From a virus (taxonomy: Duplodnaviria; Caudoviricetes), in the IMG/VR virus record IMGVR_UViG_3300014590_000001, positions 160,001-224,000 of that record: a DNA stretch of 64,000 nt; one strand, given 5' to 3'. The notes under the pieces are model-generated. The model had not been told where the DNA came from. It searched no databases and saw nothing but the letters and a program-made list of their open reading frames with translations. Shown here one piece after another: positions 5,929-51,054 of this stretch. Positions within the stretch are counted from its first letter, which is position 1, and every line of letters starts with the position of its first letter. The translations under genes and the position numbers were made by a program.

Positions 5929-6764
5929 TCTTCATCCTCTTCAGCTTCTTCCAAATCTTCCAGATACGAAACCAGTAGACGACGCAGACGGTTTTCGGAG
6001 CAGCGCTCTACGGGCACAGACGAATGAACTTCGAAAACTTTAATCCAGTGCAGCAACTGATCGCGATTCATATTACGCGCTTCGTCGGCTGTAGGAGTGC
6101 AAGTATCTTCTCCGTTCTTAACGTCTTCGGTTTCAATTCCGGCTCGCTTCTCTACGTCGAGAACGTAGGCCATCAAAAATTCGCGACGTTTCTTGTTGGA
6201 ATATTCACGCAGCATAAGCGGAGTTTGAACTTTATATTTCTTCAGCCAGTAGCGAACATGATCATCTTCCATCGTTGCAACTTGCTTGCTGGAAATCATC
6301 GGAATCTTTCCGTCACTATCTTCTGTTTCTTCGATAGCCTGAAGAGAAACCCAAACCATATTTTCTGGCCCCGCGCGTTTGTGTACACGCGTTGCTTTGC
6401 CCCAACCAACAGCAACGAAACGCTCACGCAGTTCATCGTACACCGATTGAGGATCGATTGCGTCAAAGTGACACAGTTCCAAATGCAGCAGGTTCGGAAT
6501 CAGATCGAAAGTTTGTTGTGCATATTCAGATTCTAACCACTCGCAATATTCGGTGTAGTTCTTGACGTAATCGCCGCCACTGCCTTTGTGCTTGCCGTAG
6601 TACGGTGAAGGAATTTCGCCGCCAGCAATTTCAAGCAGACAACTGTTAGCGCGTTTGATTGCTTTCGCGATAAAGTCATCCTGCTTTTGTTTCTGTTCCG
6701 TTTTAAGTTCCTCAAACTGCGTTGGGGAAACTGCGTCACGCTGATCGTGTACTGGATGCCACAT
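5925..6764 (-). CDS. hypothetical protein with two tandem HeH-like repeats
   Basis: MEDDHVRYWLKKYKV...RREFLMAY and MNRDQLLHWIKVFEV...LRRLLVSY. Confidence 0.75.
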   Translation of the reverse strand: MWHPVHDQRDAVSPTQFEELKTEQKQKQDDFIAKAIKRANSCLLEIAGGEIPSPYYGKHKGSGGDYVKNYTEYCEWLESEYAQQTFDLIPNLLHLELCHFDAIDPQSVYDELRERFVAVGWGKATRVHKRAGPENMVWVSLQAIEETEDSDGKIPMISSKQVATMEDDHVRYWLKKYKVQTPLMLREYSNKKRREFLMAYVLDVEKRAGIETEDVKNGEDTCTPTADEARNMNRDQLLHWIKVFEVHSSVPVERCSENRLRRLLVSYLEDLEEAEEDEE

Positions 6765-6769
6765 AAAAT

Positions 6770-7027
6770 TTACCTCAGTTGAGAGTCTTTACTGCCCCGA
6801 CGATTATAGTAACTGACTTGAGTTCCATCGTGTTCGGCTTGATGTTTAATGCAATACTTCGCGTTAGGCATAGCTTTCAAACGCGCAGCAGGAATTTCGT
6901 TACCGCATTCTAAACAATGCGTAGAACCTTTACCGGAAAGTTGTGACCGCGCAAAATCAATTCCATTGTTTACGTTTGTTTCAATGGTGTCATTCACGCC
7001 GTCATCTTTTACAAAACCAACTGCCAT
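6770..7027 (-). CDS. DksA/TraR C4 zinc-finger protein (YbiI/TraR-like)
   Basis: CLECGNEIPAARLKAMPNAKYCIKH; C-terminal YNRRGSKDSQLR. Confidence 0.9.
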   Translation of the reverse strand: MAVGFVKDDGVNDTIETNVNNGIDFARSQLSGKGSTHCLECGNEIPAARLKAMPNAKYCIKHQAEHDGTQVSYYNRRGSKDSQLR

Positions 7028-7035
7028 TACTTCTC

Positions 7036-7344
7036 CTAATCAGGAATTCGCATCGCGCCCTGTACGTTCAGAATTTGCACGTCAGAGAAATGGAACCACA
7101 CAACAACCGGATATTTTAAATCCTCGCACTGTTCGAGTATTCTTCCTCGAACGAATTGCAGGTTACTGCGGTCATCGTTATTGGACACGAGATATTTATT
7201 TCGTGTGTACTGTTCAATCGCATCAGCAAGACCGATTGAGTTTTTAAGCAAGAACGCATCTTCGCCTAAACGAACACTGGCTTTATTCTTGCCCATCGCC
7301 TGAACAACAGTCGGATACGAACGCACAAATAATCTTTCAAACAT
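7036..7344 (-). CDS. hypothetical protein
   Basis: 102 aa, RBS present. Confidence 0.65.
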   Translation of the reverse strand: MFERLFVRSYPTVVQAMGKNKASVRLGEDAFLLKNSIGLADAIEQYTRNKYLVSNNDDRSNLQFVRGRILEQCEDLKYPVVVWFHFSDVQILNVQGAMRIPD

Positions 7345-33893: not shown

Positions 33894-33916
33894 GGTATAC
33901 TTGATGTTTACAGATT
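33894..33916 (-). promoter_or_regulatory. putative phage promoter (rc AATCTGTAAACATCAAGTATACC)
   Basis: TCTGTAAA...ATACC motif upstream of the SSB/recA genes. Confidence 0.6.
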
Positions 33917-39898: not shown

Positions 39899-40987
39899 AT
39901 GAGTAACGACGTTCACCAGATCGTGATGGAAGAAATTTCCAAAATCCCAGGCGATAAAAAGTTTGCAGCAGAATCTATCATTGTGTGTTGTCCTTTCCAC
40001 GACGACCGATCACCGAGTTGCGGAATCTATACTTCCGTTGGTATGGAAATTCCGTTGGGAACTTATCACTGTTTCGGTTGCGGTGTTAAAGGTGGATGGA
40101 ATGACATTGCAAAGAAATTAAATCTCCAAGAGATTCAAGATTGGAGAATGAAAGATGCTGGTGAAAACTCTCTGTCTGCATTGCGTCAAACTTACGATAA
40201 GATTTCAAACAAAGTCGGAACGTATAACACGGTTGCACTTTTGATGAAAGCGTTACGCCGTGATAGTTATATGGAATGGCCTGAAGATGTTGAATGGCGA
40301 ACTTACCCAGGAACTTTAGTTCGTGCGGCAGGTGGTTTGTTGAATGCGCAGCGTACCGGAACAAATATTTGTTTCTTCCCGTGCAAAGTGGGAACGAAAT
40401 ATATTGGCGGCGTGGCGGCATACCTAACAAAGCAAATGAACGGAACAAGTTACGTTAACTCACAAGGCGATTGGGCGAAGTCGAAAGGTTTATTCCCGAT
40501 TCAACTTGTACGTGACGTGCTGAAGAAATACGGATTGCGTTATGTTGTTTTGGTTGAAGGGCCACGCGATGCACTTGCGTTATTAAGTTACGGAATTCCG
40601 GCGCTTGCGGTATTAGGTGCGGAACAGTTTGGCAATGAGAAACGTCGCATAGTTGAAATGATGGGAGTCAGCACAGTTTACACCATGACCGATAATGACG
40701 GCGGCGGTAAATTGTTGCGGAATAAAATCGCGGCGGAGTTTGGCAAGTCATCTTTGATTCGCGTTAAGCATTTTAAATTGCCGCGTGAGTATGACGAGAA
40801 AGGAAAGTTGATCAAACTCGATCCAGACAATGCGCCGTTGAGTATCATCAAGGAAGTGAAGGAATGTTTGAAAGGAGTTCACGGAGATAAGTGTCTTATT
40901 CCGGCGAAGAAGTTAGGATGGAAACGAGAAGTAAAGAAAATCGAAGTAGATGTAAAGCGTAAGAAAAAACTCACCAACAAAAAATAA
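39899..40987 (+). CDS. DNA primase (CHC2 zinc finger + TOPRIM)
   Basis: CPFHDDRSPS...CFGCG; LVEGPRDAL; TDNDGGG. Confidence 0.92.
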   Translation: MSNDVHQIVMEEISKIPGDKKFAAESIIVCCPFHDDRSPSCGIYTSVGMEIPLGTYHCFGCGVKGGWNDIAKKLNLQEIQDWRMKDAGENSLSALRQTYDKISNKVGTYNTVALLMKALRRDSYMEWPEDVEWRTYPGTLVRAAGGLLNAQRTGTNICFFPCKVGTKYIGGVAAYLTKQMNGTSYVNSQGDWAKSKGLFPIQLVRDVLKKYGLRYVVLVEGPRDALALLSYGIPALAVLGAEQFGNEKRRIVEMMGVSTVYTMTDNDGGGKLLRNKIAAEFGKSSLIRVKHFKLPREYDEKGKLIKLDPDNAPLSIIKEVKECLKGVHGDKCLIPAKKLGWKREVKKIEVDVKRKKKLTNKK

Positions 40988-44923: not shown

Positions 44924-45472
44924 TTATAGTTTGGGGGAATTGAGGAAGCGATCGATTAACTTATGTATCTGCTTCTGAATTCCAGCAAAGGGTGTGAGTT
45001 CGTTGAGCTTATAAAACGTGTACACTCCAATCAACATGGCATCAAATTCGTGAATCGCTTTCTTACTCTTTTTGGAAGTAAGATTGTATTCAGCGTACAG
45101 CGCCTTTAAATTCTCATGTCGATTGAAAGCGTTTTTCCATTGCGATGCAGTGATCACAAAGAATGGAATTTTCTTCTTGTGGCAATAGAATGCCATTACA
45201 CCGAGCATGATACTGATTGCTTCGATGGTGTTACCGCCGAGGCCGCGTGATTGGAAGCGTTCAAAACACATCGCATCAAACGGGCCATATTGTTTGTCGA
45301 TTGAGGAAATTTCATCAATGAATTTTTTCGTCACGCTGCGAAGATCGCCAGTCAAATTTTGAATTGGACTGCCAAACATTCGTGTCCCAATGATATCAAG
45401 TTTATTGCCGTCAACATTGAGAACAGAGAGAGCGAAGTTCACTTTTCCTGGGTCGCCAGATAAAATGCGCAT
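44924..45472 (-). CDS. ruvC: RuvC-like Holliday junction resolvase
   Basis: ILSGDPGKVNFA, FERFQ, ITASQWK, HEFDA. Confidence 0.8.
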   Translation of the reverse strand: MRILSGDPGKVNFALSVLNVDGNKLDIIGTRMFGSPIQNLTGDLRSVTKKFIDEISSIDKQYGPFDAMCFERFQSRGLGGNTIEAISIMLGVMAFYCHKKKIPFFVITASQWKNAFNRHENLKALYAEYNLTSKKSKKAIHEFDAMLIGVYTFYKLNELTPFAGIQKQIHKLIDRFLNSPKL

Positions 45473-47248: not shown

Positions 47249-47666
47249 GTAGAATAGGGTCACGGGGGCGTTTTAAGGCACTTCTACACAACTTCGTGAT
47301 CCGCTCTTTTTAAGAGTCAGACATTCTTCTCATAAATCAATGACTTACAGAATCAAGCAAAAATTACGCACGAGTTTCGTTTGACGAGCTTTCGCCTTCT
47401 TTTGAGTAGATTGCTGTTTCTACGCTGTCTAGGGTAGGGTGTACTGAGTAGAGGTATAGTGTGTAGTTATACCTACAGCGGAGCGCAATGCCGGGAGCCA
47501 CCAGGCCCATGCCAGCCCGGCCCAGCCGTACAGCGCAGAGGATATAGGTTCTATATTCTGTTATCCTCTAAATGTTTTTAAAATAAAAGATACAAAAAGA
47601 AAAGGCGCGGATCGGGATCGAGGTTCGGGAAAATTCTGTAAAGATCCATTGGTTTCTCGTTAAATC
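47249..47666. other. 418-bp structured intergenic region; candidate replication origin or ncRNA locus
   Basis: Largest gene-free gap; several inverted repeats, G-rich, C-rich and A-rich blocks, IHF-consensus match at 47335-47347. Confidence 0.5.
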
Positions 47667-49328
47667 ATGTTTAGGTATGTTATGGATACTTTCATCATTA
47701 AGAATCCTGCATATCAGGAACTTTCCACGGTCGAATGGGTTCGCAAGAATGTTATCTTTGCGTGTCCTTATGACGGGCCAGCAGAAAAAGAGTGGGAATT
47801 CAGGGATCAGATTTCTACTTTCTTCTGGCATATTCTCCACTGCACACTTTATAACAGCAAGTTCAAAAACGTTAAGCGTCTTCCTGCTATTCCTTTCCCG
47901 TTTGTTTTAGGTTCCGCTAAACTGCCTTTAGTTTTCGGATCTGGAAGTGAGACAACGGCGAAAGCGAATTATTCAGGGAAATCGTCAACGGCAATTACTC
48001 GCTCTTTGAATTGGCTTAGGGAAAATGTTCTGGATGTGTCAGGTTATAAGTTTGGCGCAGCAGGATCGGAGTGTAGAACTTTCCGCATCAAACGTGAAGT
48101 GTTTGAGGGTATGTATCCGCACTGTCCAAAAACTCCGGATGAAATTCTCCGGAAGACAAGATATTGCAGTCCTAAGTTTTTACGCAGCACTCCTATTGGG
48201 AAAACGCTGACTGATATTCTCGCAAAGAAATCGGTTAACGCTTTAGGTTTGCCATCACACGATTTTGAAGCGCTGCATCGCAGTACGGATCGTGAGGCAC
48301 GAAAACTTTATAAGGAAGTTTTATCTCGTCAGGAACCGATCACGTTAACGCTTCTTCCAATTGCGGAAGAGTTGAGTCGCCTGAGCAATTTCTTTAGTAT
48401 GCAAGGACGCTCGCGTTATCGTCTTGTGTTTTCCAACACAATGAATATTTTGTCCGGAAAGTTTACGTGTCACAATCTGGATGAAATGAAAATTTCTTAT
48501 CTGCCTACATATCGTGTGAGTCCAGTTGGCGGTCGTTTGTATGAATGCGGTGGCGGTTTTCAAAACATGCCGCGCAGCATTAAAGAGCGGTGCCACATTA
48601 AAGGCTACAACCACGATATGAAAAGCAGCCAACTAAACATTTTAAAACTTGAGTTCGAGCGCAACAATATTCGTTGTAACTCAATTCGAGATTTTAAAAG
48701 CGTTGCAGATTTTGGCGCACCTTACGGTTTGTCGAAAGAGGATACGAAAGTTTGTTTCTATGCGACGGTGTTTAGTATTGGTCAAGCGCTTCACTCAAAG
48801 TCTTGTTGGCATAGCGAACCTCTACGCGTGATTGCAAAATCAAAACGCGCTGAGTGTATCCGTCGTGCGGCGAAACAATTGAAGAAAAAATATAAGGATC
48901 TTTCAATGCTACAACCTGTGATCGATAAGGCTCGCAAGTTGATGGTCAAAGAAACTTTCCGTATTCGTGATATTTGGAACAAAGAAAATGAATCTTTAAC
49001 TCTGGCGCTTGAAGCATTGTGTGATACGTATATTTCTAAGGCTCGCAAGGTCAAAGAAAATTCCGTGTTAACTAATGCAGTCGGTGTGCGATTCTCTTGG
49101 CGTTCCGATTCAATTGACTACAAAATTCGCAAACAAATTCTGAGTCACATGATCACTGGAATCGAAACAAAACTTTTGTTCGATATGATTTTGTCAAACA
49201 ATGTTAAAGTCTTTTCCTTTGAACACGATGGCGCGTTAATCAGTCGAGCGAAAGTTTCGTCTGAGGGTATCGAATGGGTTCGTAAACCTTTCGATGAAAC
49301 TTCTTACCAATATTTCAAAAATCTGTAA
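47667..49328 (+). CDS. divergent superfamily-A nucleic-acid polymerase (TV-Pol-like), no exonuclease domain seen
   Basis: GGRLY...FQNMPR, motif A HDMKSSQLNIL, motif B-like TKVCFYATVF, motif C FEHDGALI. Confidence 0.7.
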   Translation: MFRYVMDTFIIKNPAYQELSTVEWVRKNVIFACPYDGPAEKEWEFRDQISTFFWHILHCTLYNSKFKNVKRLPAIPFPFVLGSAKLPLVFGSGSETTAKANYSGKSSTAITRSLNWLRENVLDVSGYKFGAAGSECRTFRIKREVFEGMYPHCPKTPDEILRKTRYCSPKFLRSTPIGKTLTDILAKKSVNALGLPSHDFEALHRSTDREARKLYKEVLSRQEPITLTLLPIAEELSRLSNFFSMQGRSRYRLVFSNTMNILSGKFTCHNLDEMKISYLPTYRVSPVGGRLYECGGGFQNMPRSIKERCHIKGYNHDMKSSQLNILKLEFERNNIRCNSIRDFKSVADFGAPYGLSKEDTKVCFYATVFSIGQALHSKSCWHSEPLRVIAKSKRAECIRRAAKQLKKKYKDLSMLQPVIDKARKLMVKETFRIRDIWNKENESLTLALEALCDTYISKARKVKENSVLTNAVGVRFSWRSDSIDYKIRKQILSHMITGIETKLLFDMILSNNVKVFSFEHDGALISRAKVSSEGIEWVRKPFDETSYQYFKNL

Positions 49329-49346
49329 ATAAGTTTCAGATACCGC
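49321..49346 (+). promoter_or_regulatory. putative phage promoter ATCTGTAAATAAGTTTCAGATACCGC
   Basis: Close match to the long-form consensus TCTGCAAATAAGTGTCCAAAATACCGC. Confidence 0.65.
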
Positions 49347-49364
49347 AGTGTTGGAGATTATATC

Positions 49365-50537
49365 GTGCCTACTAAAAAAGCACGGCAAAAACCGTTAACA
49401 GAAGAGGAAATGCGTAAAGAGGTGCTATTAAAGTCTCCGCTTCCTGCGTGGCAGAAAGAAGAGATTCGCGCTGGTCGCATTCCTGAAGCGTCGGAAACAA
49501 AGGCTGTAAAGAAAGTTAAGAAAGTAAAATCGAAACCTGAAGAAAAAGAGGTTGCTGATAAAAAGGTGAAACCCAAACCGAAGGTGAAGATTAAAAAAGA
49601 GAGGACGTTGAAAATTTATCAACTGGCTGCGCTATACGAGTATTATCATCGTAACACCGTGCTGGAAGATTATTCGCGCTGTCCTCCAATAACGATTGCA
49701 GAGGCTACGGAACTGGTCAAAGATATTAAGTCTTCTGATCTGGAATCGTGGCCTGAAGTTGATCGTTTATTTAAAAATCATCCAACACCTTCACGCGAAA
49801 ATAAGAACGTTCTCGTGCAACATCAATACGATGACATTCGAGAGTTTCGACACGCTCTTATCGAGAAGGAAATTTATGTCGGTATCAGTATTCCGTTGTT
49901 CATCGAACATTTGAAAATCGATCTGGATGATCCGATCATGCTAAGTTTTTCTTACGTGTGGTCTGGTTACATTAAGACGATGATCGAACGTAAAAAGAAG
50001 CGCGGCGATATTCTTTCGCGTCACGCATCTACCGTTAAGGACGGAGTGTATTGTTTCGAGATTGAGTGTAACGCAGAGCAAGCAAAAATCTTAGACCGCT
50101 ATTGTGAAGTTGCGCATGGCACTTTGATCGCTGCCCGTGATTATCTCAAGACTTTAGGCAAACGCGCTCCGTACAAGCTGGACAAAATCAGCAATAAACT
50201 TGCTACTCAAATTCGCGCAGAGCATGGCTTCGAAGATGTTCCGCGCAGTTTGGTTGTCAGCGCCCTTAACGGCTACGCACATAAAGTAAAATTCGATCCT
50301 AGCAAAGAGTTTAAAAAAGAACTCTCTCGGTTCTACCTGAAAGATTCTTTTAAACTGCAAGAAGATTCTCTGACTGTCGGTAAAGCCAAAGATATTGCTA
50401 TTCGAAAAGTTGTGAGCGGTGAACCACTGACGTTTAAAGTTGTTGGCGTGAGTTTCCAGCGCGTTTCTCCTTTGGTGTATACGGTCGCGATTCAGTATTG
50501 CGATATCGAATACCAGCGGAGTAAATTTTCTAAATAG
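49365..50537 (+). CDS. fusion protein: Lys-rich/unknown N-terminal half + TnpB-like WED/REC half, lacking RuvC
   Basis: aa ~227-385 align by eye with the IS200/IS605 TnpB N-terminal half; the ORF stops where RuvC-I would begin. Confidence 0.6.
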   Translation: MPTKKARQKPLTEEEMRKEVLLKSPLPAWQKEEIRAGRIPEASETKAVKKVKKVKSKPEEKEVADKKVKPKPKVKIKKERTLKIYQLAALYEYYHRNTVLEDYSRCPPITIAEATELVKDIKSSDLESWPEVDRLFKNHPTPSRENKNVLVQHQYDDIREFRHALIEKEIYVGISIPLFIEHLKIDLDDPIMLSFSYVWSGYIKTMIERKKKRGDILSRHASTVKDGVYCFEIECNAEQAKILDRYCEVAHGTLIAARDYLKTLGKRAPYKLDKISNKLATQIRAEHGFEDVPRSLVVSALNGYAHKVKFDPSKEFKKELSRFYLKDSFKLQEDSLTVGKAKDIAIRKVVSGEPLTFKVVGVSFQRVSPLVYTVAIQYCDIEYQRSKFSK

Positions 50538-50540
50538 TTT

Positions 50541-50565
50541 AAGCCTCTTCGGAGGCTTTTCTTTT
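50541..50565 (+). terminator. intrinsic terminator
   Basis: AAGCCTC-TTCG-GAGGCTT-TTCTTTT. Confidence 0.85.
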
Positions 50566-50589: not shown

Positions 50590-51054
50590 ATGAGTAGTAA
50601 CGAACGTTTAGCGGAATTGATCCGCGAGCGTCATGCTCTTATGCGCGAAACTTTCTGGAACACTTTCAATGCCTTCGAAAAATCATTCGCTATCACTAAC
50701 GATCCTTTCTTCCCTGATGCTGAGTGGCTGCTTACTAAGCGCAGTATGCACTTACGCATGGGCAAGGGAACCGGTCATAGTACGTTTGCAAAAGAACTGG
50801 CAGAGAAACACAACGCCTTTCTTTTAACAATGGATCACGAATCAATTACTGGTGAATATTCTTTCACTCATAATCGGTTGCGTGAGTTATACCATAAAGT
50901 TTTTGAATCTGGCGACAAGCCTACCCTGTTCGTTATTGACGATGCTTATCAGTTTGGTGGACGGATTGAATCCCTCGCACAAAGACTCATTAAGTTCCGC
51001 GACGTTTTAGGTGAGGCTTACATTCAGCAGGTTCGCTTTGTGCTTCTAAACTAA
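50590..51054 (+). CDS. hypothetical protein with degenerate P-loop-like motifs
   Basis: MGKGTGHST...LFVIDDA. Confidence 0.7.
   Translation: MSSNERLAELIRERHALMRETFWNTFNAFEKSFAITNDPFFPDAEWLLTKRSMHLRMGKGTGHSTFAKELAEKHNAFLLTMDHESITGEYSFTHNRLRELYHKVFESGDKPTLFVIDDAYQFGGRIESLAQRLIKFRDVLGEAYIQQVRFVLLN

Follow-up and report, generated by a model that had tools for sequence, protein, structure and literature searches.

What might a jumbo phage that already holds a normal replicative polymerase and a primase do with a further, minimal DNA polymerase, placed between a long non-coding leader and a protein with a TnpB-like lobe? Precisely because such enzymes are already present in these phages, the role of the additional one becomes a testable question. 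We have examined it computationally in a window of 64,000 nucleotides (the whole stretch of DNA analysed) from a jumbo phage of plant-pathogenic enterobacteria with a genome of 256,657 bp (256.7 kb).

The cassette and its surroundings

An earlier note on this DNA had described three co-oriented adjacent elements near a strand switch, closed by a terminator, and this arrangement was confirmed. All the elements of the cassette (47249-50558) lie on the + strand, ca. 1.7 kb past the divergent strand switch at 45472/45591. A 179-aa gene directly precedes the non-coding gap (47249-47666), and at the other end a hairpin followed by a T-run, resembling an intrinsic terminator (50541-50558, + strand), closes the cassette, the next gene beginning beyond it. 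The separate DnaG-type primase mentioned in the note was also found, as a Toprim_2 match at window positions 40547-40795, and the sole PF00476 match of the genome is again a different gene, a classical PolA at genome positions 246329-247459. The cassette polymerase, with all its catalytic residues intact, comes in addition to both.

Several neighbouring genes have annotations related to DNA metabolism. A DNA_pol3_delta2 domain, i.e., a clamp-loader homologue, is encoded near the cassette in the relatives L002, L004, and L006, and the JA11 record labels this gene “putative DNA polymerase III” and another neighbour as a putative Holliday-junction resolvase. No helicase or recombinase gene adjoining the polymerase was seen by Pfam, phrog or the JA11 annotation, and inside the cassette there is no transposase, integrase or resolvase. 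The cumulative GC-skew reaches its minimum 2-8 kb upstream of the cassette. However, this minimum falls at the strand switch in transcription and is by itself no marker of an origin.

A TV-Pol-type polymerase

The polymerase gene (47682-49328, + strand) codes for 548 aa, or 553 aa if the start is at 47667. The first ca. 195 residues have no assigned fold, and residues ca. 200-548 make up the thumb, palm, and fingers. In the AF2 model (pLDDT 91.7), residues 200-547 superimpose on residues 375-832 of KlenTaq with a Z of 15.1 and an rmsd of 3.8 Å over 283 residues. The top 50 matches in VIA-align were all family-A DNA polymerases, with KlenTaq the best, and Foldseek gave a probability of 1.0 to Taq and the apicoplast polymerase, with T7-like RNA polymerases matching too. 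The hairpin arginine R290 (in G-G-R) is found in 91 of 92 homologues and is flanked in the model by strands 282-284 and 291-293. The metal-binding aspartates of the palm, D317 and D521 (in N.D....Q and H-D-G contexts), are present in 91 and 90 of the 92, and K361 of the fingers in all of them; the first position of the RxxxK motif (357) is V, K or R, being Lys here. Further conserved residues are Q322, Y365, G498 and E500 (QG.E), H520-D521-G522 (HDG), and K540. From the alignment, Q322 appears to occupy the position of the steric-gate Glu of Pol I, and F369 that of Y766.

A profile of the 92 homologues matches gp030 of the Microcystis phage Ma-LMM01 (E 9e-38). Iyer et al. 2008 (PMC2579912) name Ma-LMM01 as a TV-Pol holder, in the text cited here by the phage rather than the gene; gp030 adjoins IS605-type genes, in agreement with their description. 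The Atlas neighbours of the polymerase are D5_N/DUF5906 fusions of Preplasmiviricota and DNA_pol_A clusters. Pfam, including PF00476, gave no match for the polymerase (E up to 0.1) or for the 92 aligned homologues (E up to 0.01), and no exonuclease (proofreading) domain was detected, the fold matches beginning at about residue 195. The protein belongs to phrog_30690 (“unknown function”) and is a “hypothetical protein” in all 43 phage records. With the fold, the conserved residues, and the TV-Pol profile match, the minimal PolA-superfamily polymerase of the earlier note stands firm, and it is very probably a family-A DNA polymerase of the TV-Pol type.

The partner protein

The following gene (49365-50537, + strand) encodes a partner of 390 aa in three regions. 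Alignments delimit a disordered Lys/Pro-rich tail (residues 1-78, nt 49365-49598) and a helical domain of no known fold (residues 79-224, nt 49599-50036), and fold searches a TnpB/Cas12-like WED-REC-WED lobe (residues 225-390, nt 50037-50534), all on the + strand. Four fold searches with two independent models led from residues 225-390 to the N-terminal WED/REC lobes of TnpB and Cas12. In the ESM Atlas, residues 223-384 matched PF12323/TnpB clusters (TM 0.58-0.66 depending on the target), and the top Foldseek match was 8ex9_A, the ISDra2 TnpB (probability 0.97, E 0.038). The top 14 matches VIA-wide were all N-terminal parts of TnpB, Cas12 or Fanzor (Z 6.4-3.7), the best aligning residues 225-390 with TnpB 3-180 (Z 6.4), values that fall below the level excluding common arrangements. 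The AF2 model searched against the Atlas pointed to TnpB/Cas12 N-lobes as well. An SSB-type fold was not among the best matches. The AF2 model of the partner is of low confidence (pLDDT 58.6). Along the chain the motifs are co-linear with those of TnpB: a strand, the N.EQ helix, the DVPRS helix, FKK..SR.Y, and the G.AK.I.I strands.

Sequence profiles gave a different picture. There was no Pfam match, neither PF12323 nor PF01385 was found, a PDB HMM search had no match, and hhalign against the full-length TnpB of Ma-LMM01 gave a probability <1%, with one local match between the two proteins that was co-linear and non-significant. The nuclease-less TnpB-derived lobe of the earlier note is thus upheld at the level of fold and not by sequence profile, and from the models we consider it likely that residues 225-390 are homologous to the WED/REC lobe of TnpB. 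RuvC and the TNB zinc finger are absent, the chain stopping 12 residues past the last WED strand. As for an omega RNA, there was no Rfam match, no covariation in the leader, and no space downstream of the partner gene, and the RNA-library contigs over 47292-47536 give a hint at most.

The leader and the promoter motif

The leader (47249-47681) measures 433 bp to the second ATG, or 418 bp to the first (up to 47666), and is the third-largest stretch without ORFs of at least 60 aa in the 256,657 bp scanned. Aligned in five phages, it has a mean column identity of 78%, with invariant blocks. The gap is indeed non-coding, but the hairpin-rich, structured character once attributed to it did not hold. 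The + strand folds no better than shuffled sequences (z -0.99) and the - strand marginally better (z -2.0), the covariation term of RNAalifold for five related phages is positive (penalising) on both strands, and Rfam gave no match to the leader. A structured RNA is unsupported, because the leader folds like its shuffles and shows no covariation. The hairpins located right after the stop of the upstream gene (47257-47317, + strand), with stems in both the MFE and the centroid folds, probably mark where the upstream operon ends; at this site a different hairpin, then a T-run, is found in JA11, L015, and L016.

What is conserved in the leader are short boxes. Box L (47336-47353, - strand), 18 invariant nucleotides, contains the promoter box as an imperfect copy in inverted orientation (TCTGTAAG when read on the - strand). 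Box L is identical in the five phages, recognisable in L004 and L006, and unique within the genome, and it pairs with 47633-47641 as inverted repeat I7. The central region (47475-47536), also unique in the genome, consists of an invariant box, AGCGGAGCGCAATG (47477-47490), and after it a C-rich patch made up of short repeats resembling GCCCAG/CCAGGCC. Comparable C-rich patches are found in the leaders of distant relatives, and gaps of 367-736 bp precede distant homologues as well. Iterons were not convincing. RNA-library contigs from two studies run over 47292-47536 and end at 47533-47536, which we note as a weak hint.

Box R (47633-47654, + strand), ca. 45 nt before the polymerase start, is the phage promoter motif (an A-rich stretch, then TCTGTAAA) with a conserved stretch downstream of it. 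The motif also stands before the polymerase gene of JA11, L004, L006, pEa_SNUABM_18, L002, and L008. As the earlier note had it, both genes have the same core, TCTGTAAA, at 47635 before the polymerase and at 49322 before the partner, the second copy (49322-49329, + strand) lying across the stop codon of the polymerase gene, 36 nt ahead of the partner gene. There are nine copies in the window against 2.85 expected, a number reached by none of 100 shuffles, and with its A-rich context the core precedes many genes genome-wide. The polymerase and the partner have their own promoter copy each, with no translational coupling in this clade.

Conservation and exchange of the cassette

The order gap-polymerase-partner is kept in JA11, JA13, JA29, L004, L006, L014-L016, Yoloswag, and pEa_SNUABM_18. 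The TnpB-like partner was found in 22 phage records, and in every examined record that has it the partner directly follows a polymerase of this family. However, it is not universal, which counts against the reading in the note. Relatives of the Alexandra/Y3 type keep the polymerase and have a small, acidic, unrelated protein in the partner slot, which means that the TnpB lobe is dispensable for some polymerases of this family.

In another respect the synteny turned out to be stronger than expected. The flanks of the cassette in pEa_SNUABM_18 and Alexandra (Alexandravirus) are ca. 83% identical in DNA and the flanking proteins 66-93% identical, whereas the polymerases share 20.5% identity and the partners are unrelated. 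The DNA homology breaks off where the upstream gene ends and sets in again right after the partner gene. Since two near-identical backbones carry alternative versions of exactly this block, leader, polymerase, and partner have been exchanged as one unit. Among related phages, every record matching either protein has one version or the other at this locus, a set made of 43 records with a close polymerase and most or all of 16 Erwinia partner records (two of them checked), and no empty site was found among the records matching the polymerase or the partner. The cassette is a conserved, exchangeable, three-part element of the Salmondvirus/Alexandravirus/Yoloswagvirus group of jumbo phages, and very likely leader, polymerase, and partner form a single genetic module. 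The natural swap is in itself a ready-made genetic experiment, with one backbone and two versions of polymerase, partner, and leader. The TV-Pol is here a fixed gene across cultivable jumbo phages (Dickeya phages JA11, JA13, and JA29; Erwinia phages Alexandra, Y3, Yoloswag, and others); to our knowledge, CcPol is the only TV-Pol characterised biochemically.

Possible functions

CcPol needs the protein MP for ssDNA binding and priming and acts at a site beside its operon (PMC7581432; PMC10061031). Like CcPol and MP, polymerase and partner might work jointly, as a primase-polymerase or as an enzyme that initiates synthesis. The partner would provide DNA binding by way of its basic tail and TnpB-derived lobe, possibly in a site-specific manner and possibly to an RNA-DNA hybrid, the polymerase would begin or extend a DNA chain, and the leader would supply the promoter and perhaps also the cis site of initiation. 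From the comparative analysis, we tentatively put this explanation as a whole, an exchangeable primase or initiation module of a polymerase and a DNA-binding partner, somewhat short of an even chance, and the priming or initiation function by itself at about the same level or slightly lower. It is improbable that the TnpB-derived WED/REC lobe is the targeting subunit of a TV-Pol primase-polymerase, reading a duplex motif of the leader or an RNA-DNA hybrid of its transcript and starting phage DNA synthesis there. If true, such targeting would add a new type of machine for initiation at a specific origin, and for TnpB itself it would be a fate not seen before.

The polymerase could instead be an auxiliary enzyme of repair, gap filling or lesion bypass, with the partner as a DNA-binding accessory or regulator and the leader as nothing more than the upstream operon's terminator with the promoter and 5′ leader of the polymerase gene. 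A phage already equipped with a replicative PolA and a Toprim primase, a polymerase without a recognisable proofreading domain, the putative Holliday-junction resolvase annotated beside the cassette in JA11, and a leader with terminator-like hairpins and a promoter but no RNA covariation would all fit this scenario, which we nevertheless find unlikely, as it leaves unexplained the invariant, locus-unique boxes in mid-leader, the co-swapping of the leader with both genes, and the gaps of 367-736 bp before distant homologues. It is more improbable that the two proteins are neighbours with separate roles, the partner being a TnpB-derived regulator (guide-less or RNA-guided) or nucleoid protein unconnected to the polymerase, an outcome like that of TldRs. 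Nuclease-dead TnpB transcription factors are known, also in phages (bioRxiv 10.1101/2023.11.30.569447; PMC13418256), the partner has its own promoter copy, and the Alexandra/Y3-type phages keep the polymerase without it. However, in the records examined it always directly follows a polymerase of this family, both types switch together in the swap, and TldRs retain the RuvC fold that is wholly missing here.

The sharp boundaries of the swap could also be those of a domesticated or still selfish element, derived from a TV-Pol transposon that once had an IS605-type TnpB and persisting by recombination or homing, not through any service to the phage. TV-Pols are typical of transposons and were observed beside IS605-type genes (PMC2579912), and in Ma-LMM01 TnpA-TnpB lie directly upstream of the TV-Pol. 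This origin has about as little probability as separate roles, since the same locus is filled in all related records matching either protein and empty in none, the cassette has no transposase, integrase or resolvase, and the catalytic residues of the polymerase are conserved. That the polymerase makes RNA, as a minimal single-subunit RNA polymerase for the TCTGTAAA promoters of the phage, is scarcely probable at all. T7-like RNA polymerases have Gly at the steric gate and T7 RNA polymerase needs Tyr639 for ribose selection, whereas here the steric-gate position of motif A is Gln and motif B carries Phe. In favour of the idea, Foldseek gave its five best E-values (about 2e-4) to mitochondrial and T7 RNA polymerases, the genome has no Pfam RNA_pol or Rpb2_6 match (the null for PF00940 is uninformative because its control search matched nowhere), and a phage-specific promoter motif is present. 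However, the RNA polymerase alignments of Foldseek have an rmsd of about 20 Å, the top 50 VIA-align matches are without exception DNA polymerases, and CcPol, a TV-Pol, prefers dNTPs (PMC7581432).

Comparison with known systems

The earlier note knew of no description of the combination, but it is partly precedented: PMC2579912 already placed TV-Pols beside IS605-type genes in 2008, Ma-LMM01 has a TV-Pol next to a full TnpB, and CcPol-MP-Cch2 is a TV-Pol-plus-partner primase with a cis site close by (PMC7581432). With the TV-Pol family of Iyer et al., the polymerase shares the minimal family-A core with thumb, hairpin Arg, two Asp, and fingers Lys, no detected proofreading domain, an extra N-terminal domain, and the occurrence in viruses, besides the profile match to gp030 and the D5-helicase fusions of virophage-like viruses among its structural neighbours. 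It differs from that family in that neither a D5-like helicase nor a resolvase, integrase or transposase was seen linked to it and the Arg position of RxxxK varies; moreover, it is a fixed core-locus gene of jumbo phages of ca. 250 kb, whose genomes encode a classical PolA as well.

The priming or initiation module that we tentatively favour has its closest model in SCCmec, with CcPol-MP, and in mobile elements of Bacillota, with their PolA-SSB pairs; there a TV-Pol-type gene is likewise followed by a partner of no recognisable sequence family. As here, these partners are variable and have been repeatedly replaced in evolution; MP provides the DNA binding that makes a primase of the polymerase, which acts at a site adjoining the operon (PMC7581432; PMC10061031). 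In contrast to a small OB-fold SSB, the partner here comprises 390 aa in which a basic tail and a helical domain precede the TnpB-like lobe. Its operon has no helicase, unlike CcPol-Cch2 or TV-Pol-D5, and the module resides in a lytic jumbo phage that infects Enterobacterales.

The lobe has the WED-REC-WED topology and motif order of the N-lobe of TnpB, Cas12, and their nuclease-dead derivatives (TldR, Cas12k, and the Cas12f-like transcription factors). The partner would be another domestication that lost cleavage, phage-encoded like some TldRs. However, nothing of the RuvC and TNB/zinc-finger half is left, not even in an inactivated form, and about 225 unrelated residues precede the lobe. The search for an omega-RNA-like element was negative, and there is no sequence-profile similarity. 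As far as we know, it would be the first TnpB derivative to keep the nucleic-acid-binding lobe alone, so that the known results of TnpB domestication would no longer be limited to Cas12, TldR, and RNA-guided transcription factors. The gp032-gp031-gp030 genes of Ma-LMM01 (TnpA, TnpB, and TV-Pol) offer a parallel, also in a tailed phage, with a TV-Pol adjoining a TnpB-family gene on the same strand. There, however, a full-length TnpB (OrfB_IS605 and TNB) lies upstream together with its TnpA, probably as a simple IS element, whereas here only the lobe remains, downstream of the polymerase and fused to other domains.

Genome Setting

The virus record is 256,657 bp long (the window being genome 160001-224000), carries direct terminal repeats and is ca. 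77% identical at the DNA level to Dickeya phage vB_DsoM_JA11 (genus Salmondvirus). Downstream of a divergent strand switch at 45472/45591 come two + strand genes (371 aa, then 179 aa) and then the cassette, on the same strand: a non-coding leader (47249-47666/47681), a polymerase gene (47667/47682-49328) and a partner gene that starts with GTG at 49365 and codes for 390 aa. A terminator-like hairpin (50541-50558) follows. The first gene past it (50590-51054) codes for 154 aa with a weak match to AAA ATPases (E 1.5e-4, just above the Pfam cut-off).

The polymerase ORF has 553 aa, or 548 aa from a second ATG, which is the start chosen by gene callers in relatives. Both candidate ATGs and the 12 nt between them (47667-47690) are invariant in five phages (the window, JA11 and the related loci L014, L015 and L016), so conservation cannot pick the true start; a weak AGG is found upstream of the second ATG only. 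In the GenBank records of JA11 and JA33 the polymerase is annotated as 405 aa from an internal ATG (JA11 locus L001, CDS 6048-7265), which creates an artificial 862-bp "gap" in those records, although JA11 has conserved the whole 553 aa as an open frame (L001 5604-7265).

A TV-Pol-Type Polymerase

The 553-aa protein was recognized by neither Pfam nor PDB sequence searches and is assigned in PHROGs to phrog_30690, of "unknown function". A word-indexed search gave 11 close relatives, and a profile search of 1.84 billion representatives gave 309. The AlphaFold2 model, made from an alignment of 92 homologues, was confident (pLDDT 91.7, pTM 0.89). Foldseek matched it to mitochondrial and T7 RNA polymerases with an E of ca. 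2e-4 yet an rmsd of ca. 20 Å, and to apicoplast Pol, Taq and Klenow at probability 1.0. On re-scoring with VIA-align, family-A DNA polymerases filled the whole top 50, the best match being KlenTaq in its closed ternary complex (Z 15.1, rmsd 3.8 Å over 283 residues, model 200-547 against Taq 375-832).

Essentially invariant across the 92 homologues are R290 (in a G-G-R hairpin), N315/D317, Q322, K361, G498/E500, H520-D521-G522 and K540. G498/E500 (Q-G-x-E) correspond to the "QGxAAD" of Pol I. By alignment with motif A of Pol I (D-Y-S-Q-I-E-L-R), Q322 is presumably at the steric-gate position, and in motif B Y365 and F369 would stand, we assume, at the places of Pol I F762 and Y766. Among the structural neighbours in the Atlas are D5_N/DUF5906 fusion proteins of Preplasmiviricota, which have the Sputnik-type TV-Pol-helicase architecture. 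The 92-sequence profile matched one ORF of Microcystis phage Ma-LMM01, gp030 (E 9e-38), and this phage is among the holders of the TV-Pol family in the list of Iyer et al. (PMC2579912). Because of the folds, the conserved residues, the match to gp030 and these Atlas neighbours, the 548/553-aa protein is filed as a TV-Pol-type family-A polymerase, with the caveats that the "RxxxK" motif lacks a conserved Arg and that the fold assignment covers the protein from ca. residue 200, with none for residues 1-195. Since the same phage also encodes a classical PolA (a 1055-aa frame at genome 246329-247459) and has Toprim_2 matches elsewhere, one of them at window 40547-40795, the TV-Pol-type enzyme is an extra one and, as the earlier note had argued, not obviously needed for ordinary priming.

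A Partner with a TnpB-Like Lobe

In the large protein collection the partner had no more than 14 relatives, and neither Pfam, PHROGs nor PDB sequence searches gave a match. Rescanning divergent homologues with Pfam and searching the PDB with phmmer/hmmsearch likewise yielded nothing for polymerase or partner. It consists of a poorly conserved Lys/Pro-rich tail (residues 1-78), a helical domain (79-224) and a last region made of a strand, helices and then five or six strands (225-390). A weak Gad1 match (E 0.066) falls in the Lys-rich tail and was therefore dismissed, and an Atlas search with the middle domain (79-222) gave nothing above noise.

It is the last region that resembles TnpB. The ESM Atlas's own model of the partner aligns over 223-384 with PF12323/OrfB_IS605 clusters (TM 0.58-0.66 by target), and our AlphaFold2 model, itself weak (pLDDT 58.6), again retrieved TnpB clusters from the Atlas. 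The three best high-probability structural matches in Foldseek were ISDra2 TnpB, with a probability of 0.97 and an E of 0.038 for 8ex9_A, in which only WED and REC are resolved. In an exhaustive VIA-align comparison with 48,161 chains, the first 14 rows were TnpB, Cas12g, Cas12f, Cas12k, Cas12n, Fanzor2 and relatives, and in each of them it was the N-terminal part that aligned with partner 225-390 (Z 6.4-3.7). When divergent Erwinia homologues were added to the family alignment, the conserved motifs came in the same succession as in TnpB, opening with a hydrophobic strand that is followed by N-x-E-Q plus a helix, then by a D-V-P-R-S helix that is invariant, by F-K-K..S-R-x-Y and by G-x-A-K-x-I-x-I with the closing strands. 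As the protein ends right after the last WED strand, it is without the RuvC or zinc-finger part.

The earlier note had described a nuclease-less, TnpB-derived protein. The lobe, found in four fold searches that agree, and the absence of RuvC bear this out at the level of the fold, but the AlphaFold2 model is weak and no sequence method reached significance against TnpB: hhalign of the partner family with the Ma-LMM01 TnpB gave no significant match, and pairwise BLAST gave a single co-linear match with an E of 0.22. A search for more TnpB sequences returned near-identical copies only. Taking all this together, we consider homology of the lobe to TnpB probable.

The Leader and Its Probable Promoter Motif

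Only two stretches of the genome that are free of ORFs of 60 aa or more are longer than the leader. Its mean identity in five phages is 78%, and their coding DNA differs by ca. 20%. It contains box L (47336-47353), 18 nt invariant in the five phages; the invariant box GC (AGCGGAGCGCAATG, 47477-47490), with short repeats in a C-rich patch behind it; and box R (47633-47654), invariant together with the 5' leader after it. None of these boxes occurs a second time in the genome, and box L repeats box R imperfectly in inverted orientation.

Box R holds an A-rich + TCTGTAAA motif that is very probably a phage promoter. There are 9 copies of TCTGTAAA in the window against 2.85 expected, a number reached by 0 of 100 shuffles, and genome-wide the motif is found 25-55 nt before many start codons, oriented with the gene and often just after terminators. 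Window copies of the form A-rich + TCTGTAAA(t/a) are at 33914(-), 35006(-), 38261(-), 39771(-), 39844(+), 54235(+) and 57587(+). A second copy in the cassette extends over the stop codon of the polymerase gene, at a distance of 36 nt from the start of the partner gene, so the claim that both genes have the same promoter core held. This is likely a phage-specific promoter class that has no obvious -35/-10 layout; Pfam RNA_pol and Rpb2_6 detected no phage RNA polymerase in the genome, and a scan for sigma-70 promoters and terminators found no enrichment. Outside the window, the longest run of the genome without ORFs (1,065 bp, genome 46092-47156) has copies of the motif near its start (46097, 46206), inside (46650) and past its end (47796).

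The leader had been proposed as a hairpin-rich structured locus, which our results do not bear out. The folding z-scores were -0.99 (+ strand) and -2.0 (- strand), neither Rfam (E up to 1) nor ARAGORN detected an RNA gene, be it at 45-52 kb or elsewhere in the window, and the covariation term of RNAalifold on the five leaders was positive on both strands; the long-range pairing that it draws is simply that of the invariant inverted promoter boxes. The leader is thus not demonstrably a structured RNA. Coverage by contigs from RNA libraries (three runs, two studies) extends to both genes and to a portion of the leader, although neither strand, ends nor true transcription can be read from such contigs and their uncovered stretches carry no meaning. 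Metatranscriptome contigs from a wastewater and a seed study run from 47292/47324 to 47533/47536 and both end there, where a DNA contig continues. These ends are just before a hairpin (47537-47569), and DNA carry-over is possible; they give only a weak hint of a discrete transcript from 47292-47536.

Exchange of the Cassette as One Block

By tblastn, the polymerase was found in 43 phage records (Dickeya JA11/JA33/JA29/JA13/AD1, many Erwinia amylovora jumbo phages and one Yersinia phage) and the partner in 22, with 51-59% identity in four Salmondvirus genomes and ca. 26% over residues 81-378 in 16 Erwinia records. The partner-bearing Erwinia records listed are absent among the 40 polymerase matches listed of the 43. 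In the two that we examined, Yoloswag and pEa_SNUABM_18, the gene immediately before that of the partner codes for a 552/559-aa protein that belongs, as a divergent member, to the polymerase family (hhalign probability 98.6%, E ca. 1e-15), with both catalytic Asp kept and a classical motif B (K-T-L-N-[FY]-G-G-I-Y). The leader is there as well (500 bp in Yoloswag, 331 bp in pEa_SNUABM_18), in the latter terminating in the same promoter box.

Alexandra, the Y3-type phages and the metagenomic locus L002 have a 525-aa polymerase, 36% identical to that of the window, and their partner slot is filled by an acidic protein of 165-167 aa whose gene overlaps the polymerase gene. The distant homologues L008, L009 and L010 have gaps of 367-736 bp before the polymerase and overlapping small genes after it. 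Such overlapped genes are at L002 7575-8078, L019 6087-6584, L008 2219-2650 and L010 6592-6951. In L002 and L008 the C-terminal half of the small product is strongly acidic and aromatic-rich, ending in P-W-x-x-L-x-[LI]-K. The small proteins encoded downstream of distant polymerase homologues (P0177, P0178 and P0179) had no Pfam match and resembled one another and the partner only marginally; an Atlas search with P0177, the acidic one, gave nothing above noise. The small acidic protein could stand in for the partner or mimic DNA.

The comparison of pEa_SNUABM_18 with Alexandra, both Alexandravirus, is the most telling. Their flanking proteins are 66-93% identical, the polymerases 20.5%, and the partners are unrelated; the DNA homology (ca. 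83%) breaks off at the stop codon of the gene before the leader and is back from the first base past the partner gene. Such sharp limits between similar flanks indicate that leader, polymerase and partner were exchanged as one block. The three-part synteny, whose conservation the earlier note had proposed as a check, is kept in Yoloswag and pEa_SNUABM_18, as a block that can be swapped, but in Alexandra and the Y3-type phages the partner is replaced.

Proposed Function and Alternatives

The closest characterized system is CcPol-MP of SCCmec, in which a TV-Pol-type polymerase extends primers unaided. For de novo priming with dNTPs it must be bound to the protein encoded by the following gene, from which its ssDNA binding comes; synthesis preferably starts at a site adjoining the operon (PMC7581432). 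Partners of this type have been replaced repeatedly (PMC10061031). By analogy, the phage partner would bring the polymerase to DNA, and the leader would act as promoter and perhaps also as a cis site. The N-terminal lobe of TnpB reads a short duplex motif and cradles an RNA-DNA hybrid; the contact with DNA could be made through the basic tail of the partner and its TnpB-like lobe. The clamp-loader homologue found near the cassette in relatives, the putative Holliday-junction resolvase gene that is annotated there in JA11, and the minimum of the cumulative GC skew, which falls at genome 199-205 kb, 2-8 kb before the cassette, are consistent, if weakly, with such an initiation role; the skew minimum, however, coincides with the transcriptional strand switch.

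The same genes could instead encode a repair polymerase with an accessory protein, or the enzyme could be an RNA polymerase; as to the latter, its motif A/B pattern, read in the light of what is established for Pol I and T7 RNA polymerase, looks like that of a DNA polymerase rather than an RNA polymerase. Polymerase and partner might also be independent neighbours, the partner being a regulator, or the cassette could be a selfish one. A complex prediction of the polymerase with partner residues 79-390, run without controls, scored 0.03 and carries no weight either way. The one-block exchange is the best available evidence that leader, polymerase and partner belong together.

Relation to Known Systems

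TV-Pols and polymerase-partner primases are known, as are nuclease-dead TnpB derivatives (bioRxiv 10.1101/2023.11.30.569447; PMC13418256), and an occasional linkage of TV-Pol to IS605-type genes is mentioned by Iyer et al. (PMC2579912). The combination, for which the earlier note knew of no description, thus has partial precedents. What is new is the recognition of a TV-Pol in a core gene that an entire group of jumbo phages carries without annotation, a regular neighbour of it in which a TnpB-like lobe, its nuclease half deleted, is fused behind other domains, and a three-part cassette that exists in natural alternative versions.

In Ma-LMM01 the TV-Pol is downstream of a complete TnpB with its TnpA, whereas in the window cassette the nuclease half has been deleted from the TnpB-like lobe. 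The cyanophage locus (L013 5747-9130) has gp030, without Pfam match, directly downstream of gp031 (TnpB, with OrfB_IS605 and TNB); the divergent gp032 is a Y1 TnpA and makes up, with gp031, a full IS200/IS605 unit beside the TV-Pol.
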